Below, one piece after another: positions 1 to 14,420 of a DNA stretch of 14,420 bases. Positions within the stretch are counted from its first letter, which is position 1. The number at the start of each line of letters is the position of its first letter. This DNA is from Planctomycetota bacterium (lineage in GTDB: Bacteria; Planctomycetota; SZUA-567; H5-PLA8): positions 1-14,420 of the forward strand of contig BTVV01000144.1 in the NCBI GenBank assembly GCA_045863855.1, in the 5' to 3' direction. The notes under the pieces were generated by a model that searched no databases, was not told the origin of the DNA, and was given only the letters and a program-made list of their open reading frames with translations. A program made the position numbers and the translations under genes.

Positions 1-601
1 GGCAAGACAATGTCTTGCCATTATCGGGTGAATACAGCGTTCCGGGGAAAGGGACGTTGCTGACACTGAAATGCACCAGGATGTGAGACCCTACCTTATA
101 CAGGTCGCGACTATGCTGTTGCTCCTTATGAATGGTCTTGATGGTCCAGGCTCCTTCGGAACTTTTACGGAAAAATTTCATCCCGCCGTTCATCTGGTCG
201 GTGCTGGTGACGTATAATTCGCCATCGAAGACACGCATGTGAGCCATGCATTCCTCGGGAAATTCAATGGGCTTTCCGGCGGCGTTTCGATCCACGGCAA
301 ATAGTTCGGTCTGGGTATCGAAATACAGCATATAATTGTTTATTCGGTTGTTAGTGCTACCGTGGCCAATGTAAATGCGCTCCTGGAAAATCTGCAGGTC
401 GTAAGTCCACTGCTTGCCGCTTGGTACAATCATGTTCCCCCCGGATTTCTCGACCTTGTTCCAGGTTTCGCCGTACAGGTCGGGGAGCGGCGTCGGGAAA
501 AATTCAACTTTCTCACTGACATCGATCCACTGGCTGGCGGCATGAGCCGGGACAGATATAGAAAAGCAAACCAGGCACAGGACGGTAACGGTTCGATGCA
601 T
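1..601 (-). CDS. Secreted hypothetical protein, probable beta-propeller with Asp-box (BNR-like) motif; 3' end runs off the window
   Basis: Hand translation from ATG at 601 (AAGGGGA upstream) is open to position 1: MHRTVTVLCLVCFSISVPAHAASQW...DLQIFQERIYIGHG...HMRVFDGELYVT...LYSPDNGKT. It has a signal peptide with AHA|A cleavage, repeated beta-blade-like segments and an SxDxGxT motif. It is absent from the ORF track because no stop codon falls in the window. Confidence 0.8.
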   Translation of the reverse strand, partial: MHRTVTVLCLVCFSISVPAHAASQWIDVSEKVEFFPTPLPDLYGETWNKVEKSGGNMIVPSGKQWTYDLQIFQERIYIGHGSTNNRINNYMLYFDTQTELFAVDRNAAGKPIEFPEECMAHMRVFDGELYVTSTDQMNGGMKFFRKSSEGAWTIKTIHKEQQHSRDLYKVGSHILVHFSVSNVPFPGTLYSPDNGKTLSC

Positions 602-706
602 TTGAGGGAATCCCCTTGAGCAGTTTACAGGTACTCCTACTTTAGGTGCGTAGTGTCGGTCAAGTTTGGCACGTTGGTTCCAGGTAAGGGCTTCAGGGCA
701 AAGTCA

Positions 707-3373
707 CTACTCAAACTTCAACACGCCGAAATCCTCTGGCGTATGAAACCCACCCGGGCCGTATACAAAGGTCCACATCTGGCGGCCGGGGCGCGAGCGG
801 CAGAAATTGGCCGCCCACAGGTCGCCTTTCTTGATGGGGTCATGGGTCAGGCTGCTGAGCGGAATCGCGGCTTCCATGATCCAGACGTGTTTGTCGATGG
901 TGGTCTTGACCTCCCAACCCGAATCCCACACTTCGGCGGGCTTGCCGCTGTATTTGTCCCAAGTGGCGCCCATGATGCCTGCGACGAGTTGGTAGTAATT
1001 CATCTGGTCGCCGCCAGGGGCGATGAACAATTCCACAGAAGGACCGTGCCAGATGCCGCCGGTATCGGCGCGGTCGTTTTTCTCGCGAGCCCACCACATG
1101 GGCGTGCCGTCGGCCTTGGTTGTCTTGATGGCCATTTCGTCACCCGAATGGCATTCGGCGGCGACGTACAGGAATTTGTCGTCGTAGCAGACGCGCACGC
1201 TGGTGCTGTCGGCATCGGGCACGGGCACACCCGTTTCAGGTCCCAGGTCCATCCACTTTTCGCCCAGCGCGACAAAACCGCCGGCCACCGGCGCCTTTTG
1301 CCAGCAGTCTTCGTCGAGTTTCCCATCCAGCGTCACCGGCTGTTCGGCGCGAATGGCCGTCAATTCGCGGTAGCCCGCCGCTTCCATGCGGCCTTGCTTC
1401 TTCATGCGCATGCCAATCGCGCCGGTTACGTCCTTCAGCATCGGATCCTTTTCCGGAAAAACCTCGGCCAGTGCCGCCAGCAGCGATTTCAACTTAGCGT
1501 TGACTTCTTTCAGCTCGGTGATTTTCTCCTCGCGGGTCATGCGCAGCGGGATGGTGCGGTGGCTTTCGTAGAACTGCACGAAATCGTACAGCCGCTTGTA
1601 CTGATCCGGGTTGCGCTTGCTCATTTCACGGCAAGCCAGCTTCAGCGCGCGTTCAGGATTGTAGGCCTCTGGGTTCCAGCTCTGGTCGCAGCGCGTGATG
1701 CGGTTTAGCGCGGTGCTATTTTCGCTGAAGATCCCCAGCAGGTGCTTGGCCAGTTCTGGACTGCGGCCTTCGCGGGGAATGGCAAAGTAGTCGCCGTGGC
1801 GCGCGTAGTTGTCGTATATCAGGCCCTTGCAGGCGGTCAGGCCAAAGCTTTCCATGTAACGCCGAATGCCGTCGGGCGAAAGGTCCTTGCTGAACACCTG
1901 GGGCCCGGTCCAGCACAGCGCGATGTCCTTGGGCAAGCCGCCCGCTTCCAGGATGGCCCTGGCCAGGTGACCGCCGGTAGGCGCGGCGTATTCCTGCGGA
2001 AGGTACCAGATGCGGCATCCGGGATCGATGGTCTTCGCGCGCTTATCCAGTTCGGTCAGGAAATAGACGATGGCCGGCCCGTACTTGGCAAAGCGTTCGG
2101 ACGTGTCAAACTCCGGTGGCGGCAGAAAGAAGTCTGGCAGCGCGGCGGCCAACAGTTCTCGATTGATCTTGACCGCCAAATTGCGCGAGATACCGGGTTG
2201 CATTCCCCCCCATTTGTCGGCAGGAACGCTGGTCTGGGCGAAACTTGCTGCATCGTACAAGTCAAACATCGCGGTGAGGGTACTAAAAACGTTGATCAGA
2301 TCATCTTCGTAGGTCCACCACTTGGCATTGCGATCGGTGGCCTTGGTCAGCAGTGCGCGATCTGCCTCGCTCATTCTGTCCCACAGTCGCTTTGCGGGTG
2401 ACGGCTCGGGCGCGGCGCCGGCCTTCACTACCAGATTCATCAGCGCCACCAAGTCTTTGATGTCGCCCTTGCCCAGGTTGTAGCCGCTGCGCAGCGATGC
2501 GCCGACGTCGTCGAATTTCACGCAGAAATCCTTGACCCCTGTCTTTTCAAAATGCGCGCGGAAGGCTTCACCCAGGCGATTAAGGTAGGCGTCGCTGCAA
2601 TCCAGACTGCCCCCGGGCGACCAGGTGGGAATGAACCAGCCGAAATTGCCCAATAGTTCGCCCGCCTGCTTGGACGGCGTACCCCAGCAGAAATTATCTT
2701 TGTATTGCGGCATGTAATTGCGCAGAGCCTTGCTGCCGCGCGCGGGGAAGGTCGGCCAGTCTTCCATCCACACGCCCGCGGTGTACGCCTGCTCGGCCTT
2801 GCGAATCAGCAATTGGCGCAGGGTCTGCACGGCCCAGAAATCGCCCGCCGGCTGGTTGCCGGCCAGGAGCGCGACGGCCTTTCCTTCGTGCCGCGTGATA
2901 ATCAGGCGGTAGCCTTCCTTGCCCAAACGGGCTGTGGTGTCAGGCGTGGTTTCGATGCCCAGCGCGTCCATAACGGTACCGCACAGTGGATTGCGCGCGG
3001 GATCGCCCACCATGACCACCAGGTCGGCGTCGCCGCCCGCGGGCCAGGCGTCGGCGGCCATGGGTTTAACGTCGGGGAACAGCTTGGCCAGGTCGCGCAG
3101 CGTCGAGGCGTGCGGATACTCCTTGGGGATGACCACGGCAGCCTTGTGAAATTCCAGCAGTTTGCCGGCGTACTGGACATGCCGCGGCGTCGGGATCACC
3201 GCCATTTCAAGGTTGTCGCTCATGTACGGCGCCACTACGGTGTCGATGGCCACGCCATCGGTCCAGCCAGCGGACACTTTGGCCGGCGCAAGGTCGGCTG
3301 CGCCAAGCCGAAGACCCACACAGAAACCGCAGACCATTAGCACGAGGCAGATGCGAAGAAGCCCTTTGATCAT
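707..3373 (-). CDS. Secreted GH84-like (beta-N-acetylglucosaminidase/O-GlcNAcase-type) glycoside hydrolase with GH20b-like N-domain, ~128-aa insertion and C-terminal CBM9-like domain
   Basis: 888 aa with a Sec-type N-terminus. GH20 domain-2-like segment VIPTP...EGYRL...GDFWAVQTLRQL...DWPTFPARG. GH84-type motifs KFDD (DD at 2507-2512), PQEY, WTGPQV, YDNY. C-terminal LDGKLDEDCW...YDDKFLYV...WIMEAAIP...NFCR is CBM9/DOMON-like. Confidence 0.75.
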   Translation of the reverse strand: MIKGLLRICLVLMVCGFCVGLRLGAADLAPAKVSAGWTDGVAIDTVVAPYMSDNLEMAVIPTPRHVQYAGKLLEFHKAAVVIPKEYPHASTLRDLAKLFPDVKPMAADAWPAGGDADLVVMVGDPARNPLCGTVMDALGIETTPDTTARLGKEGYRLIITRHEGKAVALLAGNQPAGDFWAVQTLRQLLIRKAEQAYTAGVWMEDWPTFPARGSKALRNYMPQYKDNFCWGTPSKQAGELLGNFGWFIPTWSPGGSLDCSDAYLNRLGEAFRAHFEKTGVKDFCVKFDDVGASLRSGYNLGKGDIKDLVALMNLVVKAGAAPEPSPAKRLWDRMSEADRALLTKATDRNAKWWTYEDDLINVFSTLTAMFDLYDAASFAQTSVPADKWGGMQPGISRNLAVKINRELLAAALPDFFLPPPEFDTSERFAKYGPAIVYFLTELDKRAKTIDPGCRIWYLPQEYAAPTGGHLARAILEAGGLPKDIALCWTGPQVFSKDLSPDGIRRYMESFGLTACKGLIYDNYARHGDYFAIPREGRSPELAKHLLGIFSENSTALNRITRCDQSWNPEAYNPERALKLACREMSKRNPDQYKRLYDFVQFYESHRTIPLRMTREEKITELKEVNAKLKSLLAALAEVFPEKDPMLKDVTGAIGMRMKKQGRMEAAGYRELTAIRAEQPVTLDGKLDEDCWQKAPVAGGFVALGEKWMDLGPETGVPVPDADSTSVRVCYDDKFLYVAAECHSGDEMAIKTTKADGTPMWWAREKNDRADTGGIWHGPSVELFIAPGGDQMNYYQLVAGIMGATWDKYSGKPAEVWDSGWEVKTTIDKHVWIMEAAIPLSSLTHDPIKKGDLWAANFCRSRPGRQMWTFVYGPGGFHTPEDFGVLKFE

Positions 3374-3402
3374 CGGGATGCTCCAGAAAGTTGAGGTCGG
3401 TG

Positions 3403-5703
3403 TTACTCGAACGTCAGGTCGCCGCAGTATTCACCCTTGAAGAGGTCCTTGGTGGATGCCAGGGGCGACCAGCTGGACAGTTCCATGCCCTTCTCGCTTT
3501 TGACGACGCGATTGCGAATGACATTGAACCCCCACGTGCGACCGGGGGCCGGTTTGTACTGCGCGTCCAGCGATTGCAGTGGCAATTTGAATTCAGCCAC
3601 CCAGTGGTCGGGGTAAGTTGCGACCTTGACTTCGAAGTTTTGTAGATGCTTGTGGCCGAAATCGTAGCTGCTGGCCTGGCCGTGGGTGGTGGTGCAGAGG
3701 AATCCGGCCCGCGATTTTTCGCCGGTGTGGTCGATGCTGAGCTGGATGAAATCGCCGTGCTGGACCTTCCATCCTGTCTTTTCGGTGTAGGGCTTGACTT
3801 CCTTGATCTTGGGCTCGTCCAAGCGCAGGCCGACGTAAAGGAACTGGTCATCGTACAGGACGCGTGCCACGGTGGCGGGCGTAGTCTTTTCGGTAAACGA
3901 GCCTTTAGTGATAAATCCGTCCAGTGCCGGTGCTTTTTCCCAGGCCGCTTCGTCCAGTTTACCGTCCAGTACAATGGTTCCGTCTAGGCGCGCGGCCTTG
4001 CCCTTTCGCATGTGGCGCTGATTTTCGACGATTTTTCGGAATGTGGCGATGCGCGCGGAGGCGGTCTTTTCAATTTCGCTCGCCAGTTTCTGGTCGGTCA
4101 AATGGGCCTTGAGCAACGGCACTTGTTTGGCAAAGAAAGCCTCTTCGTCATCGACCAGTTTGCTCAACTCGTCTGGTGTACGCTGCGCCTGGTCAGGCAC
4201 GATGGTGCGCGAATTATGCGTGCGCTTCCATTCCATGCAGGCCAGCAGTGGCGCATAGGCCGCCTTGCCTCCAAAGCGGCGTGCCCATTCACGGGCGGCC
4301 AGTTTGTTGCTCAGTTCCGGACTGTAGGCCTTCGGGTTCCAGGCCCAATCCAGGCCGGATAGGAACGCGACATATGAGGCGCGGTCGTGATTGCTACACA
4401 TCATGTGAATGTCGGTGATCTCGGCTAGGTTGGCTTCGGCCGGCGGCTGCGGGCCGGTTTCGGCGCAGGTGCTGGGCACTCCTATGGGCCAGTTGTAATA
4501 GAACAGCGCAGGCCGGCGGCCAAACGAATCGCCGTAGGCTTTGGCCTTGGCAAGATTCATGCCGTGGGAAGTGACGCCGTGGCCGGTCCAGCACAGCAGC
4601 AGATCTTCGGGCAGGCCGGCTTCTCGCGCGCTCACGACGTTAGGCTCGTCACGGATGTTCGTGCCGTGGTATTCGTGCGGACACCAATACACCGGCGCCT
4701 GGGGGGCCTTGGCGCGCACGGCTTCGCGAAAGGTCTTGAGCATGTCGGCGTGAGCCTTCCAGTATGAGTCGTACACCTTCGCATAGGAACTGTGCAGTCC
4801 GGTGGGCTGGTCGTCAAAGCTCAGGACGAAATGCCTGGCACCCGCATCGGCCCAGAAGGCGAAGGTGGAAGTGATGTTGTTCTTGAGCGTCTCGGCCGCC
4901 GAATCGCCGCCCACGCCCTTGCTCAGCGCCGTGCCCGGGTTGAAGCTCACCGCTGTTTCGCCAAAGCAATCCGTGTAGGCCTTGATTGCTGTGGCCTTCT
5001 TCTGAGCGCTGCTTGAATCTCCCTGGACGGTGCCGGTGTAGGTCCAGCCGAAATTCAGTTTCAACGGTGCGTACAGGCTCGCGTACTCGGCGGACAGACC
5101 CTTGATGCCGCGCAGTTTGAAGGCCGGGCCGTCCCGTACTTCGGCTTCGCGAACCCACACCGCGCCGTCGTCGTGGTGGCGGGATACCTGCCGCGCCGTT
5201 TGCACCGCGTAGTAGTCACCGGCGGCTTCCAGCCCGGCCAGCAGCACCACCAGCAGGTTGCCTTCGCGCGCGGTCTTGAACAGATACGACTGATCGGGAT
5301 GCCGGCCCCAGGCTTCGGGCTCGAAGGTCAGCTTGGCTTTATCTACCCATTGCCGGGCCACGCCGTTGCGCGAGGGCCCGCCCACCAACACGGCGGTGCC
5401 AACTTCAGGTAGCGCGCCCACCACCATTGGCGGTTCCGCCAGATGCAGCCATTCGGTCACAGCCTTTGCCACCCGCGGGTCGATCTTGCCGTCGGATACC
5501 AGCACGGGCTTCTCTACTTTCCATGCATGGCTGCCCATCTGCGCACTAAAAGGTGTGGGATAAATGGTGCCGTCCAGCGTGGGATCGCCAGTGGTGTCCG
5601 TTACAGCCTGCGCGGCGGGACCTTCCTCCAGACCCCAGGCTCTGCAGCCCAGGATCCAGGCGGCCAGGGCCAAGGCGAGAAATCGGCGGCGGTTGAGCGT
5701 CAT
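3403..5703 (-). CDS. Secreted (putative Tat) GH84-like glycoside hydrolase with GH20b-like N-domain and C-terminal CBM9-like domain; paralog of 707..3373
   Basis: 766 aa; AGGAG RBS upstream; NRRRFL twin-arginine signal. IYPTP...GDYYAVQTARQ...DGPAFKLRG, then motifs SFDD (4810-4815), CPHEY, WTGHGV, YNWP. C-terminal LDGKLDEAAW...YDDQFLYV...WGFNVIR. Confidence 0.78.
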   Translation of the reverse strand: MTLNRRRFLALALAAWILGCRAWGLEEGPAAQAVTDTTGDPTLDGTIYPTPFSAQMGSHAWKVEKPVLVSDGKIDPRVAKAVTEWLHLAEPPMVVGALPEVGTAVLVGGPSRNGVARQWVDKAKLTFEPEAWGRHPDQSYLFKTAREGNLLVVLLAGLEAAGDYYAVQTARQVSRHHDDGAVWVREAEVRDGPAFKLRGIKGLSAEYASLYAPLKLNFGWTYTGTVQGDSSSAQKKATAIKAYTDCFGETAVSFNPGTALSKGVGGDSAAETLKNNITSTFAFWADAGARHFVLSFDDQPTGLHSSYAKVYDSYWKAHADMLKTFREAVRAKAPQAPVYWCPHEYHGTNIRDEPNVVSAREAGLPEDLLLCWTGHGVTSHGMNLAKAKAYGDSFGRRPALFYYNWPIGVPSTCAETGPQPPAEANLAEITDIHMMCSNHDRASYVAFLSGLDWAWNPKAYSPELSNKLAAREWARRFGGKAAYAPLLACMEWKRTHNSRTIVPDQAQRTPDELSKLVDDEEAFFAKQVPLLKAHLTDQKLASEIEKTASARIATFRKIVENQRHMRKGKAARLDGTIVLDGKLDEAAWEKAPALDGFITKGSFTEKTTPATVARVLYDDQFLYVGLRLDEPKIKEVKPYTEKTGWKVQHGDFIQLSIDHTGEKSRAGFLCTTTHGQASSYDFGHKHLQNFEVKVATYPDHWVAEFKLPLQSLDAQYKPAPGRTWGFNVIRNRVVKSEKGMELSSWSPLASTKDLFKGEYCGDLTFE

Positions 5704-5738
5704 TAGGTACTCCTGAAAGGTCCATCACCAGGACTGCG

Positions 5739-5819
5739 TACACCTGTGGTACAATATGGAATCAAGGAAGTATACAATTTTGTAGAATTTAATTGTACCA
5801 TCATCCTTAAGGTGTATAC
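5739..5819. promoter_or_regulatory. Divergent promoter/operator region with nested inverted repeats (putative GntR operators)
   Basis: AT-rich gap between divergent genes. Inverted pairs TACACCT(5739-5745)/AGGTGTA(5810-5816), TGGTACAAT(5747-5755)/ATTGTACCA(5792-5800) and TACAA-TT-TTGTA(5773-5784). GTAC/GTATAC cores match GntR-family box style. Confidence 0.55.
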
Positions 5820-5861
5820 GTGTAGATGAGTCAACCATTTGCACATAAGTAGGGCAGGCGA

Positions 5862-6998
5862 ATGACCGAACAGCAGGCCCCCGGGCAGATCATACACGCA
5901 AAACTTCTGGATCGCATTCGCAACGGCACCTATGGCGAACGGCTGCCGACCATGCGCGCGCTGGCCGGCGAGTTCCAGGTCAATCTCAAGACCATCCAGA
6001 AGGTCATTGGCCGCCTGCGCGACGAGGGCTTGGTTTTAGCGCGGCAAGGGTCGGCCGTTTATGTGCGTTTGCCGGGCGAACGCACGAGCCTAAAGCGAAA
6101 ACCGCGACGCGGGCGGCCGACCGATCTGACCGGGACTAAGATCGGCTTCGTCTGCGACGGCTACGGGCGAGTGACGGGCGCGGGGCCGCATCCGTACTTT
6201 AGTGAGTTGCTGCGCGGCGCGATGGAAGCGGCGGCCGACGAGGGGCTAGATCTGAGCTTCCTGCCAACGCCGGGCTGGGGACACCTGGGTGAAGACGAGG
6301 CTTTTTTCAGGCAGCGAGTACTGGAGGCGGGGCTGCGTGGGGTGATTTCGCTGACGCCGACAGCCCGCGAGGTGGAACGGTACGTGGCGAACGGGATCCG
6401 GTTTGTGATCTGCGGGGACCATGTGAAGTTGCCTCCGATGTTGGCGAGCGCGCGAGTGCCGCGGTTGTTCCATCCCTGGGACGAAGCGGTGGGCGAAGGG
6501 GCTCGGCGGTTGATCGCGGCGCGGCACCGTCGGATCGCGTTCCTGGGACGCAAGGGGCTGGCGGGGTTCGAGGCGGCATTAGGCGCGTATGGGCTGGAGG
6601 TGCCGGCGGCATGGCGGCAGCGCGCGGCAGCGGACGCGGAGGAGACGGGGTACGTGGGTGCGCAGCGCTTGCTGGACGAACCCATCCCGCCGACGGCAAT
6701 GCTGGTGACGGACGATTTCACGTGCCGAGGCGTGCTGATGGCGCTTTTGGAGCGGCGGATCGAGACGCCGGGGTCGCTCTCGCTGCTGACCTTGGCGAAC
6801 GCGGCTTCAGACCTGCATCTGTTGCGCCCTGTGAGCACGCTGGAAGTGGACGGACGGCGTGAAGGCTGGCGGTACGTGCGGGTGCTGGCGCGTGAGCTGC
6901 GGCGCGGGCCGAAGGCTCCGTCGGAGCGGGACCGCTGGCCGCTGCCGCCGCGCTTCACAGATCGTGGCTCAATCGGGCCGCCGGGAGGCGAGGCATGA
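5862..6998 (+). CDS. GntR-family transcriptional regulator with LacI-type sugar-binding domain (AraR-like architecture)
   Basis: N-terminal wHTH RLPTMRALAGEFQVNLKTIQKVIGRLRDEGLVLARQGSAVYV. C-terminal periplasmic-binding-like fold (YFSELLRG...HRRIAFLG...PPTAMLVTDD...PGSLSL...STLEVD). Confidence 0.9.
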   Translation: MTEQQAPGQIIHAKLLDRIRNGTYGERLPTMRALAGEFQVNLKTIQKVIGRLRDEGLVLARQGSAVYVRLPGERTSLKRKPRRGRPTDLTGTKIGFVCDGYGRVTGAGPHPYFSELLRGAMEAAADEGLDLSFLPTPGWGHLGEDEAFFRQRVLEAGLRGVISLTPTAREVERYVANGIRFVICGDHVKLPPMLASARVPRLFHPWDEAVGEGARRLIAARHRRIAFLGRKGLAGFEAALGAYGLEVPAAWRQRAAADAEETGYVGAQRLLDEPIPPTAMLVTDDFTCRGVLMALLERRIETPGSLSLLTLANAASDLHLLRPVSTLEVDGRREGWRYVRVLARELRRGPKAPSERDRWPLPPRFTDRGSIGPPGGEA

Positions 6999-9382
6999 GT
7001 CCGGACGTGATGTTGGCGCCGCACGCGGCGGCGGCGTTGCCGGAGCCTTGGGCGGTGCTGACGGCGGCGGATACGGGCGGGATGCATTGGGCATCGAACG
7101 CGGCGGGCTTTGAGGCTCGCCCGCGGGACGCACGGACTCTGGAACTTCGCGGCGAGTTTCCTGCGGGACTGGTGCGCTTTGATCTGGAAGGGCGCGCCGG
7201 GGCATTTGATGCGGGAAGCCTGACGCTGAAGCTGCGATTCGGCGCTGGGCACGGGCCGCATCCGCATGACGAGGCGGCCCCGCCGACGGGGCCATGGGAC
7301 TACATCAACGGAGATTTTGTGGTTCCGCGGTTTGGCCTGGAAGTGGACGGGATCGCGCATCCGGAATGCGTATGGCTGGATCTGCCGGGAGCAGCGGACC
7401 TTGAGGCCGGACGGGCTCGGAGCAGCTTCGCTCTTCGTTTTTCTTCGAGCGGGCCGCGGACGATCGCACTTGCGTTCGCCCGGCCTCGTTCGGATGACAT
7501 GCGGCTGGACTGTGCGACTTGGGCGTCGATTCGGATCGGGCGGGACGAGCGGGACGATTCGCTTCGATCGGGCGTGGACTTGCTGCCGGAAATGCGAGGC
7601 GTTCATCCGCGAATGTGGCTGACGGCAGCGGATGCGGAGCGGTTGCGCCAGGAGATCGGTTCGGGAGGCATTCGAGAGGCGTGGTGGCGCCGATTTCTTG
7701 GTAGCGAAGCGGCCAGTGCGCCGCTGGGATTGGCACTGCGGGCGCTTCTGGCGCGCGACTCGAAGGCGCGCGAGGCGGCGCTGGCGGTCGGCGATGCGCT
7801 GTGCGATGCGGAGCACTGGGGAACCGGCCAGCCCGGCCACATGGGCTGCGACAACGACATCCGCGCCGGGGAGCATCTCTTCTTACTTTCGCTGCTATGC
7901 GACTGGCTGCGCCCGGAAGGCGCCCGGGCGGCGCGCTGGCGGGCCAAGCTCATCCATCACGCGCGGCTGGTGTTTCGCTTTGCGCTCCTACAGCGCAGTT
8001 ACCTGCCGACCGGGTACCTCCAGAATCACTTCAGCGCGACGTACATGGGACTGGGTGCGGCGGGGTTGCTTGGGTGCGATGACGCGGACCTGAAAGAGGA
8101 AGCGCAAGATTGGCTGAACTTCGCCGCGAACGAGTTTCGGCGGCGGAACGCGCTCTGGACGCCGGACGGATCGGGCTGCGGTCTGGACGTGAGCTACGGA
8201 TTGGATTTCCACGTGCGCTTCGCAGAAGCGATTCGGAGTGCGTGCGGTTTGGATGTGCTGGACGGTCCGCACTACCGCGCACTGCCGGACTATTGGCTGC
8301 ACCGGCTGATCCCTTCTGGGCTGGGTGGTTACCGTGGCATCTTGTGGGTGCTGGCGCGGCGAACGGAGCACGCGGCGCTTCAGGCGCATCTGGCCCGCGC
8401 GGTGCGGGAAAGCGCGACCTTATCGGCGGAGGAATTGATTTGGGGCGACCCACGGTACGCAGCCCCGATGGAGTTGCCGCTCACGCGGATTTTCGAGGAC
8501 TCGGGCGAAGCGTACCTGCACGCCGAACCGCAAGGGCGTCGGGCGCACGAAACTTGGCTGAGCTTTCAGGCAGGCGTGCCATTCGGGAAGACGCATAACG
8601 CACGACTGACGCGGTACAACTTCGCGCACTTCATGCCAAGCCGGGGCGAGGTGTTGCTGCGGCATCGCGGGCGGACGATCCTGGGAGACGGGGGCCGCAG
8701 CTACCGGAAGCTCACGTCGCTACACGATGTCCTGACCTTTGACGAGACAGGTCAGTTCGGGGACGGCTTTGTCTGGATGCCCAAACCGCGGGCGGAGCAG
8801 TGCGGGACGCTTGGCCATGCAGCGGAAGCAGGGCGCGCGACGGCGCTGGAGGCGGAACTGTCCGGAGCGTATCCGCGCGTGCGCGGGCTGGAACGGTACA
8901 CGCGGCGAGTGCTCTTCCTGCGCGACGAGGTTGCGCCGCTGGCGGTGATCGTAGACCGTGTGCGTTTCGGCGCGGAAGCCGATGCTCGAACGCTTCACTG
9001 GCGCTTCCACGCACCGGAAGCGGAGGTTCTTAACGAACCGATTCGCGCCGCTCGGATCGGCGAAGGCGAAGAGCGGTTCCTATTGCGCGCCTTGGCTCCG
9101 GGCGCGGAGTCGCTGCGCGAAACATGCGGCCAGACCGAGGTGGTGGTGCAGTATACGTGGCGCGGCGCCTTCCAACGCCAAGTCGCGTGGAGTTGGCCGC
9201 GCGACGGCGCGCGGGAGGCGCTCGGTCTATTTGTGCTATTCCCCGAAGCGCACGCTTGGCGCGTGGAGGCGTTGGAGGAAGGCTGGCGGTTGAGTAGCGC
9301 AAGGGCCGTGCTGAATCTCGACCTTGCTGACGCCGGTATGGCGCTTTCGTTGCGCGATTCGACTTACTCATGGCGAGTGTAG
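6995..9382 (+). CDS. DUF4962 / heparinase II/III-like polysaccharide (oligosaccharide) lyase homolog
   Basis: 795 aa; ATGA overlap with the regulator stop and GGAGG/GAGG RBS. HPRMWLTAAD start of a helical toroid, QNH motif, PDGS..SYG, FEDSG, and a C-terminal beta-sandwich (TSLHDVLTFD...GQFG, YTRRVLFL...IVDRV...LHWRFH). No evident signal peptide. Confidence 0.7.
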   Translation: MSPDVMLAPHAAAALPEPWAVLTAADTGGMHWASNAAGFEARPRDARTLELRGEFPAGLVRFDLEGRAGAFDAGSLTLKLRFGAGHGPHPHDEAAPPTGPWDYINGDFVVPRFGLEVDGIAHPECVWLDLPGAADLEAGRARSSFALRFSSSGPRTIALAFARPRSDDMRLDCATWASIRIGRDERDDSLRSGVDLLPEMRGVHPRMWLTAADAERLRQEIGSGGIREAWWRRFLGSEAASAPLGLALRALLARDSKAREAALAVGDALCDAEHWGTGQPGHMGCDNDIRAGEHLFLLSLLCDWLRPEGARAARWRAKLIHHARLVFRFALLQRSYLPTGYLQNHFSATYMGLGAAGLLGCDDADLKEEAQDWLNFAANEFRRRNALWTPDGSGCGLDVSYGLDFHVRFAEAIRSACGLDVLDGPHYRALPDYWLHRLIPSGLGGYRGILWVLARRTEHAALQAHLARAVRESATLSAEELIWGDPRYAAPMELPLTRIFEDSGEAYLHAEPQGRRAHETWLSFQAGVPFGKTHNARLTRYNFAHFMPSRGEVLLRHRGRTILGDGGRSYRKLTSLHDVLTFDETGQFGDGFVWMPKPRAEQCGTLGHAAEAGRATALEAELSGAYPRVRGLERYTRRVLFLRDEVAPLAVIVDRVRFGAEADARTLHWRFHAPEAEVLNEPIRAARIGEGEERFLLRALAPGAESLRETCGQTEVVVQYTWRGAFQRQVAWSWPRDGAREALGLFVLFPEAHAWRVEALEEGWRLSSARAVLNLDLADAGMALSLRDSTYSWRV

Positions 9383-9419
9383 GGTTTCATTTGCGGGTTT
9401 CTGCGACCAAACTATGACA

Positions 9420-9573
9420 TGAATCTTGGAAACAGGTCCATTCTAGATGCGAGAAAGGGGTAGATTTTGGAATCGAGGAGGGATAGCAGATGAAGATGAA
9501 ACGGTTTACAGAAGCGCAGGTTGCCATTGCCCTTCAGCAGTCAAAAATGTTCCTAGCCCTGCTATCACTTTGA
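9420..9573 (+). pseudogene. IS3-family (IS407-like) relic: left end plus first ~17 codons of transposase OrfA
   Basis: TGAATCTT... start at 9420 (IS3-type 5'-TG end), GAGGAGGG RBS, and ATG at 9490 giving MKMKRFTEAQVAIALQQ, which resembles OrfA N-termini (MKxxRFTExQIxxAL). Unrelated sequence follows, with a stop at 9571-9573. Confidence 0.6.
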
Positions 9574-9720
9574 AAGGAGAGCGTACCTTTGTCGTCTTCC
9601 TACGCAAAAGCTCATCGCGTGGCGGTACAGGGGATGAAGGTACGGTCGAAGAAAAACAAAAGAGTAGAGTTGAAGGGGAATCGGGTTTGGTGTCTTCCGT
9701 GCAGATTGTTGCAAAGCAGT

Positions 9721-9751
9721 GCAACCCCTTCCGCCAAGGAACCGCCAAAGA
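9721..9751 (+). repeat. Direct repeat copy 1, putative integrase arm-type sites (CCGCCAA x2)
   Basis: GCAACCCCTTCCGCCAAGGAACCGCCAAAGA; 28/31 identical to 9975-10005; CCGCCAA units 11 bp apart. Confidence 0.85.
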
Positions 9752-9807
9752 AATTGAAGTGGTTTCTGCAACCTTTTGTAGTGATAGCGCTTAACAATAT
9801 GTGTCCT

Positions 9808-9857
9808 TCGGCTTCCCAAGCCGAAGGTCGAGGGTTCGAATCCCTTCGCCCGCTCCA
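9808..9857 (+). tRNA. 3' fragment of tRNA-Gly(CCC) serving as att core (not an intact tRNA)
   Basis: Anticodon arm TCGGC-TTCCCAA-GCCGA (CCC at 9815-9817), variable loop AGGTC, T arm GAGGG-TTCGAAT-CCCTT, acceptor 3' strand CGCCCGC, discriminator T, CCA. No D arm or 5' acceptor strand (GCGGGCG) upstream. Confidence 0.92.
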
Positions 9858-9974
9858 AGGCAAATCAGCGCAGTTCGTTGCAAACGCGCGCACGTCCAAG
9901 CAATACGAACGACCTCTGCTACATACTCGATTTCCGCGTTCAGTGCAATCCATTGCTAACAAGTGCCCGCGAAG

Positions 9975-10005
9975 GCAACCTCTTCCGCCAAGGGGCCGCC
10001 AAAGA
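9975..10005 (+). repeat. Direct repeat copy 2, putative integrase arm-type sites (CCGCCAA x2)
   Basis: GCAACCTCTTCCGCCAAGGGGCCGCCAAAGA; 28/31 identical to 9721-9751. Confidence 0.85.
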
Positions 10006-10107
10006 GTCTGGCCCTATCCCAACCTAGGTCCGCGCGGAAATACGCGCCCACGTGGGCCCGGACGCGCGGGAAGCGCCAACTGTGTATAAGTCGAGATTGC
10101 GTATTTC

Positions 10108-10143
10108 TTGCATACAGTGGCAAGTGTACATACGATTATGCAA
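10108..10143 (+). promoter_or_regulatory. Putative sigma70 promoter for the nuclease gene, bracketed by an inverted repeat
   Basis: TTGCAT(10108-10113)-N17-TACGAT(10131-10136); inverted repeat TTGCATA(10108-10114)/TATGCAA(10137-10143). Confidence 0.45.
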
Positions 10144-10278
10144 AATCAGCATTAGGCACCTGTGCGTGAAACGTCTATTGCGACAGATCATTGACCAAAA
10201 CTGGTACCCACGTAAAACTGCGCTTTGCGAAGCGCAATGACTCGTACAAGTAGATTGGACAAGTGTACGGAGGTAGTC

Positions 10279-11493
10279 GTGAAGCTATTTTTTGAGGGCG
10301 AGCTTCGAGTCCTGCTTGAAAAGTCAGCCGTAAAACTAAAACACGAGATCGACACAGAACCCGAAGGCAAGCTCCTAGGCGTCAATGAACCAGATTACAT
10401 TAGGTACTTAGTTGCAAAGTACCGAATAGAGCCGCTGGCATTTGATTGGAATGCAAAGACAACCAGCACGCGGGAGGAACTAATTGAAGCCGGGCGCTTC
10501 CCATTCAACTTTGGTGTGACACGAGGAGGGAACTATCCCAAACAGGTTATCACCATACATATTCCATTCTCGGGGGACGAGCGACTCCTTGCTTTACGCG
10601 CCTCTACCTTCACGATGAGCTCTGTTGATGTGGAGTTTCGCGCGGGAGAAATCTGTTTTGACATTATCAATTGGCAGAACGACGCGGCACTGATTCTCAA
10701 AGAGGCGAATCAAACGATTGACCACATAAAGAGTCTTGTCGAGTACACCAATAGGGATGTGGTGAGCTACAATTCGGGTCTCGAGGGAAACGCCAGGGCG
10801 CACTTTGCAGGCCGGAAGAGCGAGCTCTTAAAAAGATCCTCTGTACTTATGCAATTGGGGATTCCCATTAAGCGTAGCTCGTCTGTCCCGCATGCATTCA
10901 CTATTCCTTTGGAAAAGAAGCCAGCATTGGTATCCAAACCTCCTACATCCACTTCTGCATATTCTCCTGAGCCTACGCTCGACAATACGACCTACCATCA
11001 GATCTTGACTGTCTGCAGGGACTTGGGGCGAGAGATGGAGCGGCACCCCAGTTTGTTCGCAGACAAGGGGGAAGAGGCATTACGAGACTGCTTCATTTTG
11101 ATGCTGTCCCCGCATTTCCAAGGAGGTGTTACTGGAGAAACCTTTAACAAACAAGGTAAGACGGATATTCTGATCCGGTACGATGGGAAGAACGCCTTTA
11201 TTGCGGAGTGCAAATTCTGGGGAGGAGGGAAGCAGCATTCTGCTACTATTGATCAAATCCTCTCATACTTAACTTGGCGCGATTCCAAGGCGGCCATTCT
11301 CTATTTTGTGCGAAATTTGAATTTGGACCCCGTGTTTGCCCAAATCAAGGGGAGTACTCCCGGCCACTCTTCGTTCGCAGAACATATCGGCAACCCAGAA
11401 GATGGATGGTTTAACTACCGATTGTATCTCCCCAACGACAAGACGCGTAATGTTTACTTGGCCATACTATGCTTTCACTTCCCCCAAACCTAA
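10279..11493 (+). CDS. Hypothetical protein with C-terminal PD-(D/E)XK restriction-endonuclease-like domain; candidate defence protein
   Basis: Part of ORF 10225..11493; likely start GTG 10279 after GGAGG (10269-10273), 404 aa. EEALRD...GETFNKQGKTDILIR...FIAECKFW gives an E...D-x(n)-ExK nuclease motif, followed by DQILSYL. Visibly lower GC than the flanks. Confidence 0.75.
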   Translation: MKLFFEGELRVLLEKSAVKLKHEIDTEPEGKLLGVNEPDYIRYLVAKYRIEPLAFDWNAKTTSTREELIEAGRFPFNFGVTRGGNYPKQVITIHIPFSGDERLLALRASTFTMSSVDVEFRAGEICFDIINWQNDAALILKEANQTIDHIKSLVEYTNRDVVSYNSGLEGNARAHFAGRKSELLKRSSVLMQLGIPIKRSSSVPHAFTIPLEKKPALVSKPPTSTSAYSPEPTLDNTTYHQILTVCRDLGREMERHPSLFADKGEEALRDCFILMLSPHFQGGVTGETFNKQGKTDILIRYDGKNAFIAECKFWGGGKQHSATIDQILSYLTWRDSKAAILYFVRNLNLDPVFAQIKGSTPGHSSFAEHIGNPEDGWFNYRLYLPNDKTRNVYLAILCFHFPQT

Positions 11494-11541
11494 CGCATCA
11501 ATCTCTCGTCGGTACACTTTGCGATTAGCCCAGCGCTAATA

Positions 11542-12798
11542 CTACGCAATGTCTGGTGTGGAATCTGAAGGCGAGTCCTTAACGTCTGGTACTATGCTGA
11601 ATTTTGGAAGCCGTTTCACCGCCTCGCGCATACGATCCTTGTCGGCGTGCACGTAGATGCCCAGCGTCAACTCCGGCGAACTATGGCGCATAAGGGCCTG
11701 AACGGTCTTGATATCGACGCCGGCGGCGATCAGGCGCGTACCGTAGGTATGGCGCAGGGCGTGAAGGTCCACCACCCGGCCCGCGGCGTCCTTCTTGGGA
11801 ATCTGAGCGCAATTCAAGTCGTCGTCGAAGCACCTTAGCGCGCGATCCGAGATGCCCACGACGGGGTCCTTCTCTTCAGGCTTCTTCTCTTCGCGCCACG
11901 CCTTGAGCGCCTCCGCGAGTCCGGGGGCCAGCGGTAGCGTCTGGCGTTTGCCGTTCTTGTTGCCGACCCATTCGGGCCGGGTGGTAAGCGTCCCTGCTTC
12001 CAGATCGAGGTCGCCCCAGGCAAGTGCGCGGACCTCGCCCTTGCGCAGGCCGGTCTCGAGCATCAGGCGGTACGCGAGTGCCATCCGTCGGCCTTCCTGC
12101 GCCAGATGGGCCTGGACCGGCAGCGGGATATCGGGATCCTTGAAGGCGCCGTCCTTTTGGGGCCGGTTCTGGTAGACGTGGACCTTGCGCCGGTACGGTC
12201 CGGTCAGGGCCACCTGAAGGAGCGTCGCGATCTCCTCCTCGGATAGCGCGCGTCGCAGGCGCTTCTTCTCCAGATCTGGCCGGTTGGGTATGCAATCGAG
12301 CGGGTTGTAGGGGATACGCCGTACGCTTACGGCCCAGTTGAGCATGCCCTTCACGGCTTGGAGGTAACCGTTCTGGCTGCGCGCCGACAGGTTCTTCTCG
12401 TTGGCCAGTTCCTGGAGCGCGCCTTCGACGGCCTCGGGCGATAGTTGGCGAAGGTAGACGGCCTTGGTGAGCCTGAGCATGTCGCGTAGGCGTTGACCAA
12501 CGATGACGGCTTGCTTGGCGGAAACATGGGGCGCTCGAGCGGTGAGGTAGTCCTTCACCAGACTCTCGCACAGCATCTCGGCGAAGCGCTGTACCGGCAG
12601 CCCGTTCTTCTCGGCCAGGACGTCGGACTCGGCTTTACGCAGGGCGTCTTGCGCCTGCTCCTTCGAGACTCCGGCCTTACGCCGGATCCAGCGGCCCGAG
12701 GCGTCCCCAAATTCGATGTACCACGCCTCGGTGACCTTCTCGACGCGCGTGCCGTCGGCTTTGGTCCACGCGTACTTCGGTTTGAACACACGGCCCAT
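11542..12798 (-). CDS. Tyrosine recombinase / phage-type integrase
   Basis: 418 aa; AAAGGAGG RBS. N-terminal arm-binding-like beta domain (WYIEFGDASGRWIRRK), core-binding domain, and catalytic residues R (TGLRKGE), K (NKNG), HALRH, MRHS, Y (LGIYVH). Confidence 0.96.
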   Translation of the reverse strand: MGRVFKPKYAWTKADGTRVEKVTEAWYIEFGDASGRWIRRKAGVSKEQAQDALRKAESDVLAEKNGLPVQRFAEMLCESLVKDYLTARAPHVSAKQAVIVGQRLRDMLRLTKAVYLRQLSPEAVEGALQELANEKNLSARSQNGYLQAVKGMLNWAVSVRRIPYNPLDCIPNRPDLEKKRLRRALSEEEIATLLQVALTGPYRRKVHVYQNRPQKDGAFKDPDIPLPVQAHLAQEGRRMALAYRLMLETGLRKGEVRALAWGDLDLEAGTLTTRPEWVGNKNGKRQTLPLAPGLAEALKAWREEKKPEEKDPVVGISDRALRCFDDDLNCAQIPKKDAAGRVVDLHALRHTYGTRLIAAGVDIKTVQALMRHSSPELTLGIYVHADKDRMREAVKRLPKFSIVPDVKDSPSDSTPDIA

Positions 12799-12853: not shown

Positions 12854-13141
12854 TTACTGGCGTCGATTCCGTCGGGGCTGCGCCTGAGACCATTGCTGAA
12901 AGGTGGCGGTGGGCGGGCACCCCATGCGAACCCAGGCTTGGAGGTCTGCGGGAATGAAGCGTGGTGCTTTGCCGATGCGGACGTGCGGGATGCTGCCGGG
13001 TGCATTGGGCTTGCAGGTTAGTGCCGCATACACCCAGCGTGGGGATCGCTTTAAGAAGTGGGCACAGGCTTTGACATCCCAAAGGGCCGCGATGTTCTGC
13101 TGCTGGGCATGCGGGACAGATGTATGCTCTGAGATCACCAT
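12854..13141 (-). CDS. Excisionase-like helix-turn-helix protein (HTH_17/AlpA-like), probable recombination directionality factor
   Basis: Likely start ATG 13141 after GGAG (95 aa). LWDVKACAHFLKRSPRWVY...IPHVRIGKAPRFIPADLQAWV matches the Xis-type wHTH pattern. Directly upstream of the integrase. Confidence 0.8.
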   Translation of the reverse strand: MVISEHTSVPHAQQQNIAALWDVKACAHFLKRSPRWVYAALTCKPNAPGSIPHVRIGKAPRFIPADLQAWVRMGCPPTATFQQWSQAQPRRNRRQ

Positions 13142-13182
13142 GGGGTCTCCGTTTAAGAGGGGAAAGGGAACCGGTGGCAAGG

Positions 13183-13698
13183 TTATGCCTGGAAGCCACA
13201 GGCCACGAAGGTCTCCCGAATGCGTTCGATGGTGAGGGCGATCTGGTCGCGCGAGACGTCCCAGTCCTTGGCGATCTGCGATTGGGGGGTTTGCCGTGCC
13301 AGCGCTTGGCAGACGGCGCGTTCGAACCCGCTGAGCCGCGCCATGACCTCCTGCATCTCGAGCCGCAGCGTACAGGCATGAAGTTCGTGACAGGGTTCGG
13401 CGGCGCCTTCGCCATTCCTGGAAGCCAGGACGGTTTGGCGATGGCGAGTCAACGCTTGCACTTGGCGTTTTCGAGCGCGCAGGAAACCGGAAATGCGGCG
13501 GTCAATGAGCGCGATGAACGCGGTTCGCTCACTTGCGCCAGATGGGTGATGGGGATCGTAATAAAAGTCCAAGAGTCTGGGGACAAGATCCTGGGTTAGA
13601 TCCTCCCGGTCTTGTGGGCTCAGCCGTTTGAGGTGGGCGCGTTCCCGAATGAGGCCGAGTTTCCAGGGTTCGACGAGTCCAGCGTATGAATTGCGCAT
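13183..13698 (-). CDS. Sigma-70 ECF-like RNA polymerase sigma factor-type protein
   Basis: Likely start ATG 13698 after AAAGGA (171 aa). Region-2-like DREDLTQDL...YDP...ASERTAFIALIDRRISGFLR and region-4-like VMARLSGFERAVCQAL...QSQIAKDWDVSRDQIALTIERIR. Confidence 0.7.
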   Translation of the reverse strand: MRNSYAGLVEPWKLGLIRERAHLKRLSPQDREDLTQDLVPRLLDFYYDPHHPSGASERTAFIALIDRRISGFLRARKRQVQALTRHRQTVLASRNGEGAAEPCHELHACTLRLEMQEVMARLSGFERAVCQALARQTPQSQIAKDWDVSRDQIALTIERIRETFVACGFQA

Positions 13699-13773
13699 AC
13701 CGGTATCCTTTCGCCTCGCGGGCGCAGAGGCGCTCCGATCCATTCGGAGCACGGATCCAGTAAAGCGCGTGAA

Positions 13774-13872
13774 CAGGCTCAAATCTGTAGGGCTCAAAAT
13801 GACATTTGGGCCAGGCTCACACCGTCATAATGACAGAAAAATGACTTTCGGAATGTCACCGCAATGAGCCTG
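13774..13872. promoter_or_regulatory. Repeat-rich divergent control region
   Basis: GGCTCA at 13776, 13791 and 13814, with inverted TGAGCCTG at 13865. AATGAC at 13798, 13829 and 13840. GTCAT-A-ATGAC palindrome 13824-13834. TGACATT(13800)/AATGTCA(13852) inverted pair. Confidence 0.5.
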
Positions 13873-13984
13873 TCGAGCGGCGAATAACCCTGCGTAGGCC
13901 GGCACGCCCGGTCTGGAAACGCAGGGAGATAGAGCCGATGGGTCTCAACGTTTCGGGCTCACGCCTCCGCAGGGAGGGCCGCCC

Positions 13985-14420
13985 ATGATCGCCACCGCCA
14001 CGCCTGATTTTCTGCACCGCGAGCCGGAGGCCGTATACCGCAAGAAGGCCAAGGATTACCTCAACAGCCACGCGTTGGCCGATTTCCGTAAGTGCCCGCT
14101 GCTCTACCACAAGAAGCAACTGGGCCTGATCGCCGACGAAGACAGCTCGGCCTTCGTGATGGGCCGCGCGGCGCATACGCTGATCCTGGAAGGCCGTACG
14201 GTCTTCGAGTCCACCTACGCCATCGGCGGCCCCCTCAACGAGCGGACCGGTAAGCCCTTCGGCACCGCCACCAAGGCCTGGGCGGAATGGGCCGAAGCCC
14301 AGGGCCGGCCCGTGCTCTCTCACGAACAGCTGGCCTTGGTCCAGGCGATGGCTGCCGGCGTCGCCGGGCATGCCGACGCCAAGGCGCTATTGGCCGACGG
14401 GATGCCCGAAGGCGTGGTGC
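13985..14420 (+). CDS. DUF3799-like PD-(D/E)XK exonuclease (RecE/ExoVIII-like phage recombination nuclease), 3'-truncated by the window
   Basis: GGGAGGG RBS; open frame from ATG 13985 to the edge: MIATATPDFLHREPEAVYRKKAKDYLNSHALADFRKCPLLY...AFVMGRAAHTLILEG...GKPFGTATKAWAEW...EGVV. The YLxSxxL...P..Y and GxAAHxLILE motifs are typical of this family's N-terminus. Absent from the ORF track. Confidence 0.8.
   Translation, partial: MIATATPDFLHREPEAVYRKKAKDYLNSHALADFRKCPLLYHKKQLGLIADEDSSAFVMGRAAHTLILEGRTVFESTYAIGGPLNERTGKPFGTATKAWAEWAEAQGRPVLSHEQLALVQAMAAGVAGHADAKALLADGMPEGVV

Follow-up and report, generated by a model that had tools for sequence, protein, structure and literature searches.

Tandem arrays of integrative elements with an attP site inside the array have been documented in several reports (PMC2297512, PMC4383910, PMC5704250, PMC5812530). 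The Islander survey counts 125 tandems among 3919 islands, with 2083 anticodon-centred and 159 carrying a 5′ fragment (PMC4383910). For SGI1, an attP junction can stem from either an excised circle or a tandem, and in that case it was a tandem (PMC2297512). Hybrids form between sibling elements of the SXT/R391 group (PMC5812530), and composite excision patterns are predicted for accretion through chimeric attI sites (PMC5704250). In the literature searched, which comprised main texts outside subscription papers, we found no account of the integrase family or the CCGCCAA motif described below, and no att-site study of a planctomycete.

The window analyzed here, 14,420 bp in length, is the entire contig C144 of a planctomycete genome (G000; 6.9 Mb in 287 contigs, 94% complete). 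It ends inside genes, and no terminal repeats of 21, 31 or 55 bases were found in it. Within the window, the 3′ half of a tRNA-Gly(CCC) gene is flanked by two CCGCCAA pairs and adjoins an intact tyrosine integrase gene. We conclude that this site is probably the internal seam of a tandem array, in which two sibling tyrosine-integrase islands occupy one tRNA-Gly(CCC) gene. As a feature it is a real, well-preserved seam of a known kind, both tandem tRNA islands and chimeric internal att sites being already established.

The tRNA 3′ half (9810–9862, plus strand) runs to the CCA at 9857 and five bases beyond, and its 53 bp are identical to the empty attB of a genome of the same genus, G002. This block of identity holds a 7-bp overlap between inverted core sites, with a dyad symmetrical at 8/8 positions. 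The predicted strand-exchange region is the core at 9805–9827 (plus strand), an 8-bp inverted repeat enclosing the 7-bp anticodon loop at 9813–9819 (CCTTCGGC / TTCCCAA / GCCGAAGG); its symmetry is 9/10 if extended, versus 5/8 in the intact host tRNA of G002. On either side lies a copy of a 31-bp direct repeat (28/31 identical). The left copy (9721–9751, plus strand) holds a CCGCCAA pair at 9731–9748, 82 bp before the loop, and the right copy (9975–10005, plus strand) holds another at 9985–10002, 172 bp after the loop start, a distance that recurs at other tRNA targets. Judged by position and conservation, the two copies are likely the integrase arm-type sites of the P and P′ arms, respectively. 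The arrangement CCGCCAA-N3/4-CCGCCAA occurs twice in the window, and any match occurs in 0 of 200 shuffles. Next to the left pair is a ladder of TGCA words in 10-bp steps (9700–9723, plus strand; −31, −21 and −11 from the pair), which we propose as candidate excisionase sites, and a second TGCA-like ladder (9944–9977, plus strand) stands at −41, −21 and −11 from the right pair. The dyad, the repeat and the lack of a terminator after the CCA had all been read from the letters in the initial annotation and are present as described: no terminator-like sites were found in 9600–10300, and ARAGORN detected no tRNA gene in the window. Over 9300–10300, the sole Rfam match was a weak one to a tmRNA T-arm, short of the cut-off. 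IHF-like sites fitted their consensus only with two mismatches, so they are not claimed.

The integrase gene (11542–12798, minus strand; 418 aa; PF00589, E 5.6e-24) is intact, and alignment identifies a complete catalytic set (R252, K281, H346, R349, H372 and Y382). The modeled protein has three parts, and its top VIA match is full-length lambda Int (Z 19.0, rmsd 12.1, 319 residues). The N-terminal part, predicted to comprise a β-sheet and a helix, was matched only weakly by VIA to lambda Int N (Z 4.0, rmsd 2.3, 50 residues), the HPI arm domain (Z 3.6, rmsd 2.1, 51 residues) and Tn916 Int N (Z 3.5, rmsd 1.6, 45 residues), none of which stands above unrelated rows; a Foldseek search with this part gave no match at E 0.001. 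Pfam Arm-DNA-bind_4 is detected in 3 of 6 integrase relatives (best E 0.0065) and was not found in the window's own integrase. Among 8 of 265 matches listed, the closest annotated phage integrases are 23–27% identical, and an integrase-based scan of genome contigs for related loci gave one irrelevant locus among the matches listed. The source labels of integrase homologues indicate Planctomycetota. A small helix-turn-helix ORF adjoins the integrase gene (12854–13180, minus strand; HTH_17, E 0.0087, below the family cut-off) and is a candidate excisionase, with paralogues beside the integrase genes of contigs C240 and C173. Further along, the island backbone includes a sigma-70/ECF-like ORF (13183–13797, minus strand; TIGR02937, E 1.3e-07, below the cut-off), followed by the start of a PD-(D/E)XK/DUF3799-like gene (13985–14420, plus strand; weak Pfam matches), which is cut by the contig end and has an 88% amino-acid paralogue at the end of contig C265. 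Between the right arm and the integrase gene sits a low-GC cargo ORF of 404–422 aa (10225–11493, plus strand), for which no Pfam or NCBIfam family was found; its product falls into unnamed Atlas clusters (score 0.98) and belongs to a widespread unnamed family. The top structural look-alike of this product is auto-named as an Mrr-like restriction nuclease, below the naming bar. Arms, core and integrase together support the attP-like anatomy first proposed for this stretch.

The CCGCCAA pair was then followed beyond the window. Across 17 genomes of the family it occurs 40 times, versus 6 for the reversed control, and tRNA sequence lies within 300 bp at 23 of 38 pair sites, compared with 12 of 200 random places and 15 of 200 single heptamers; the compared genomes are kin, and these counts are not independent. 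The unpublished genome G017 is used for none of the claims made here. The other 15 of 38 sites have no tRNA match within 300 bp, and some of them are at contig ends. These counts link the repeat to att sites. Offsets were taken from 24 sites looked up first, with L074 left out of the count: the loop starts 79–84 bp after the pair at 14 left-arm sites, with a further Ala site at 82, and 171–180 bp before the pair at 6 right-arm sites, with Ala, Val and a second Arg tRNA at 170–172. The same fixed spacing, with pairs about 82 bp ahead of the loop and 172 bp beyond it, is kept at seven isoacceptors (Gly-CCC, Arg-CCT, Arg-TCT, Pro-TGG, Met-CAT, Ala-GGC and Val-GAC). TGCA-like words stand at −11, −21, −31 and −41 from the pair at 19, 14, 14 and 9 of the 24 sites, respectively, and at any other offset in at most 2. 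An extended form of the motif was detected in 11 of 301 genomes across the phylum; ten new loci were examined, six with tRNA sequence nearby and four without. A two-arm junction around a tRNA half also occurs at G011:C117, where the half is inverted, and 3 of 4 two-arm matches in metagenomes surround a tRNA half, one of them beside an integrase 57% identical over 90 residues. The fourth (L126) is a duplicated coding stretch and was dropped. The core pattern had 0 matches in metagenome contigs, and viral contigs gave 0 for both the arm-core and the two-arm patterns.

Because they stand at fixed distances from the anticodon loop at seven tRNA genes, the CCGCCAA repeats are likely to be docking (arm-type) sites of the integrase. 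The motif predicted by the initial annotation thereby gains comparative support from tRNA linkage and fixed offsets, with the caveat that excisionase sites are likewise direct repeats one turn apart; directionality factors bind such repeats (PMC7498355, PMC11963761). We infer that the strict CCGCCAA pair serves the integrase and the loose TGCA ladder the HTH protein, an assignment that could be reversed. A 38-kb island at the same tRNA-Gly(CCC) in G001 (L031 4808–5060, L033 4938–5100) carries a TGGTGTTC pair and an integrase 44% identical to that of the window; motif and integrase therefore change together there. Past the far junction of that island, the start of its right arm recurs as a short copy.

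What these arms signify in G000 can be read against G002, where an intact tRNA-Gly(CCC) joins the sequence of G000 C160:1–6305 directly to that of C129 from 2161 onward, forming an empty attB. Since this empty site joins both flanks, all insertions at tRNA-Gly(CCC) in G000 lie between C160 and C129. G000 holds two left arms with a tRNA half (C144 and C129) and two right arms with integrases (C144 and C240). On C129, the second left arm and the same tRNA half are followed by host genes, marking attR. C240 starts with the second right arm, and its integrase is identical to that of the window over residues 1–328 and 95% identical overall in amino acids; both Gly integrases are full length with their catalytic residues. 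Each Gly sibling thus has its own integrase and tRNA fragment, one of the features by which Islander defines a tandem array, another being contiguity at one tRNA locus. Backbone genes are also paired in G000, on C265 and on C275 and C279 (95% nucleotide identity). The inventory of arms and integrases, together with the empty site in G002, supports the earlier suggestion that two sibling elements lie in tandem and share arm sites.

The other half of that suggestion, an assembled circle excised from a single resident element, fails on the arms themselves, because the arms of such a circle would be identical to those at attL and attR. The left arm of the window matches that of C129 at 125/134 over the aligned part and 45/123 further out, and its right arm is about 96% identical to that of C240, with a different gene in place of the 10225–11493 ORF beside the integrase gene. 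A circle could still be proposed if C144 were an episome that never integrated, or were excised from an array ordered C144 then C240, and we consider this quite improbable. In its favor, the geometry of the junction is that of a full attP, one integrated island plus one circle would also account for two left and two right arms, and the G002 sibling island carries an NrS-1-like primase-helicase gene, so replication might be possible. However, an assembler would seldom favor the path of a rare excised form, and public-run depth offers a weak argument in the same direction: in run X1, which may be the source sample, contig pieces to the left and right of the seam show depth values of 10.5 versus 7.9 and 10.1, similar to each other and to the sibling alleles with no excess, depth not being a copy number.

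The same runs bear on whether the assembler joined the left arm to the wrong right arm across the tRNA half, the true partner of the seam being the C240 island. The break in C240 coincides with the start of its similarity to the window (9963), the 74 bp at 9789–9862 are identical in C129, and no contig piece bridging the seam was found among 32 of 313 pieces listed. In favor of the tandem reading, both sibling types are seen in contigs of the runs covered (X1–X4): C129-type arm letters in X1 and X4, and C240-type integrase letters in X1–X4. X4 covers the window from 10 to 9758 almost throughout and has zero depth at 10583–11544 and 13469–13949; these gaps would fit seam sides that come from different elements, missing cover being in itself no evidence. 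We regard a mis-join as very unlikely: the exact repeat in common with C129 is only 74 bp, which should fall below the usual read size, and however the assembled ends are paired, one or more two-arm junctions remain, so that the feature itself persists.

On the preferred reading, that of an internal seam, exactly such a junction would result if an island already in place received another at its attL or attR. Read from the left, the seam would consist of the right end of one island, with its left arm; the displaced 3′ half of the tRNA; and the left end of the island that follows, with its right arm, integrase and candidate excisionase, so that left arm, core and right arm together would rebuild an attP-like site inside the chromosome. 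The catalytic and core-binding domains of the integrase would cut on both sides of the 7-bp loop within the dyad. The N-terminal domain of the integrase would contact the CCGCCAA pairs, one 82 bp ahead of the loop and one 172 bp beyond it, and the small HTH protein would occupy the 10-bp TGCA ladders and determine direction. As the two integrases are identical over residues 1–328, either is predicted to act on both islands. The order we infer for the whole array is C160 (tRNA 5′ half and a third island), a gap, the C240 island, the seam, the C144 island and the attR of C129, the most economical order in which each assembled piece appears a single time. The host flanks C160 and C129 are adjacent in G002 and the G000 contigs are unlinked, with no contig-end overlaps or links found that join C144 to C240, C129 or C160. 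The lack of links and of a bridging piece among those listed counts against the array, as do the weak arm-domain matches of the integrase N-terminus and the 15 pair sites with no tRNA sequence nearby.

The third island is of another kind. On C160 (L021, 6260–6400), the tRNA-Gly(CCC) 5′ half leads into an unrelated island, which contains a capsid gene and three GGCATACTC words. It splits the same anticodon loop and has only about 12 bp around the loop in common with the 3′ side. Its other end is unassembled, and the tRNA may have been destroyed or restored with a new 5′ half. No second cluster of its arm words was found in G000, and beyond the tRNA half it had no match in 60 other genomes. An island-borne tRNA-Gly(CCC) was not found in G000, nor did ARAGORN or a pattern search detect an intact one; since completeness is 94% and tRNAs often go unassembled, this is not taken as absence. 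An array of 26 tRNA genes at G000:C1 23667–28178 includes Gly-TCC and Gly-GCC, without Gly-CCC.

To the left of the seam, the window carries a sugar-use accessory cluster (1–9382), identified by Pfam, with two NAGidase/CBM9 proteins, a GntR-type regulator and a 795-aa protein, and this cluster is probably cargo at the right end of the upstream island. The stretch 1–9600 was not found in G003, G005 or G010, has only one 40-bp match in G002 (itself 94% complete), and has a 66% identical copy at another locus in G001. The 795-aa protein (6995–9382) is without a Pfam family and is 56% identical to a protein of the G001 sugar cluster. Synteny of the cluster with C181 was tested and is unsupported. 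The arm that follows is a mosaic. Its outer part (9598–9720, plus strand) is of the tRNA-Arg-element type, being identical to four Arg-type arms at 93–106 of 123 positions versus 45 and 48 of 123 for two Gly-type arms. The inner left arm matches Gly-type arms at 52 and 54 of 61 positions versus 23–30 of 61 for Arg-type arms. The switch from Arg-type to Gly-type lies within the 31-bp repeat, which suggests that sibling families recombined there. Short repeats at 9598–9650 and 9540–9552 have further copies in G000, within intergenic patches, and numerous copies in G002; the 9598–9650 repeat has copies away from att sites.

Left arms with part of a tRNA also turn up alone. Eleven left-arm sites were examined, and seven keep only 7–12 bases of tRNA identity past the loop. 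Short half-sites of this kind are found at L025 5681–5790 (G000:C13), L026, L028 and L029 (G002), L034 (G001) and L049 (G003); several lie in intergenic patches that vary between genomes, and one is duplicated head to tail at 111 bp. Left-arm half-sites occupy ordinary intergenic spots in G002 and G001, away from tRNA, and an arm alone is therefore no proof of a place in the tRNA array. At L016 15700–15960 (G002:C1:1625723), a Gly left arm keeps the full tRNA 3′ half with one loop base changed, 66 kb from the empty tRNA-Gly(CCC) of G002 and on the opposite strand.

These half-sites raise the possibility that the C144 island entered an orphan left-arm half-site in a variable intergenic patch beside the sugar cluster, outside the tRNA array altogether. 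The arm at L016 would be a precedent, as would the Arg left arm with its 3′ half that sits between host genes in G002, and the same patch repeats precede the mosaic arm of the window. We nevertheless hold this origin to be unlikely: it needs a third left arm with a tRNA half and a non-host flank, and only two copies are assembled, and in G000 the gene found after the G001 sugar cluster adjoins a different neighbor.

Sibling islands at tRNA-Arg place the Gly pair in a wider family. In G000 itself, a tRNA-Arg(CCT) sibling with the same arm pair (L024 1329–2711, G000:C173) has an integrase gene that keeps only its first ~85 codons. The G002 tRNA-Arg sibling encodes a PD-(D/E)XK nuclease, an AAA protein, a RecD-like helicase, an NrS-1-like primase-helicase and a ParB-methylase, and no conjugation or virion genes were found among the 11 backbone-side ORFs scanned in it. 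On account of this lack among the scanned ORFs, we describe the elements as integrative islands that carry a phage-like replication module and assign none of the labels ICE, IME or prophage. The label CIME, for elements that lost their integration gene and kept their att sites, is ruled out by the full-length Gly integrases with catalytic residues.

Tentatively, the arms and integrases also allow a broader reading, on which this family of planctomycete integrases switches tRNA targets through module swapping, keeping its arm code and N-terminal domain and exchanging its core parts. The CCGCCAA pair, the TGCA ladder, the fixed 82/172-bp geometry and one N-terminal domain would be kept, and the inner arm, the core and the core-binding domain would be exchanged by recombination at the arm repeat and the 5′ end of the integrase gene. 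The window would be a fresh product, with its Arg-type outer and Gly-type inner arm, and stray half-sites cut 7–12 bases past the loop would seed new chromosomal landing pads. The Gly and G002 Arg integrases are identical at 61/65 N-terminal, 49/115 core-binding and 130/238 catalytic positions. Against this reading, other integrases of the family match at only 29–32 of 65 N-terminal residues, at least one of them (L037) beside the same pair.

As a seam the site is textbook; its value lies in the test set that it provides, comprising an intact integrase, a complete attP-like site, the empty attB of a relative, and an arm motif predicted to keep its spacing at seven tRNA targets. Should the family indeed have one arm code and swap its core specificity, these islands would be a natural panel for how lambda-type integrases change their targets, and could supply integration tools for use in planctomycetes. 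The case also illustrates that an attP-like junction on a contig from a metagenome bin may wrongly be read as a sign of active excision.

The locus resembles the tandem tRNA islands of Islander, with a tyrosine integrase, an anticodon-centred site, a displaced 3′ tRNA fragment and an attP of ~250 bp, each member having its own integrase and fragment; unlike those, the array here is pieced together from a fragmented assembly and the empty site of a relative, and a third island leaves its 5′ half at the same loop (PMC4383910). This third island, on C160, recalls tRNA-dependent lysogeny in having ~12 bp in common around the loop and a broken tRNA at that end, but its other end is unassembled and no island-borne tRNA-Gly(CCC) accompanies it among the contigs (PMC10865867). 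With ICEMlSym R7A IntS/RdfS and phage 186 Apl, the site has in common paired direct repeats on both arms, 10-bp ladders, an integrase modeled in three parts and a small HTH_17-like neighbor, whereas the sequences of the CCGCCAA pair and the TGCA ladder differ and are candidate sites only (PMC11963761, PMC7498355). The proposed chromosomal attP-type junction resembles a circle junction and would have siblings at one site, as in the SGI1 and SXT/R391 tandems; in contrast to both, the target is a tRNA anticodon loop, the siblings combine the same integrase with different cargo, and no conjugation genes were seen among the backbone ORFs scanned here (PMC2297512, PMC5812530). The mosaic arm parallels the hybrids that SXT/R391 siblings form by recombination (PMC5812530). 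Finally, as in ICE/IME/CIME accretion, a chimeric internal attI would be built from the right end of one element and the left end of another, but where the review describes decayed partners or distant integrases, both integrases here are intact and nearly identical (PMC5704250).
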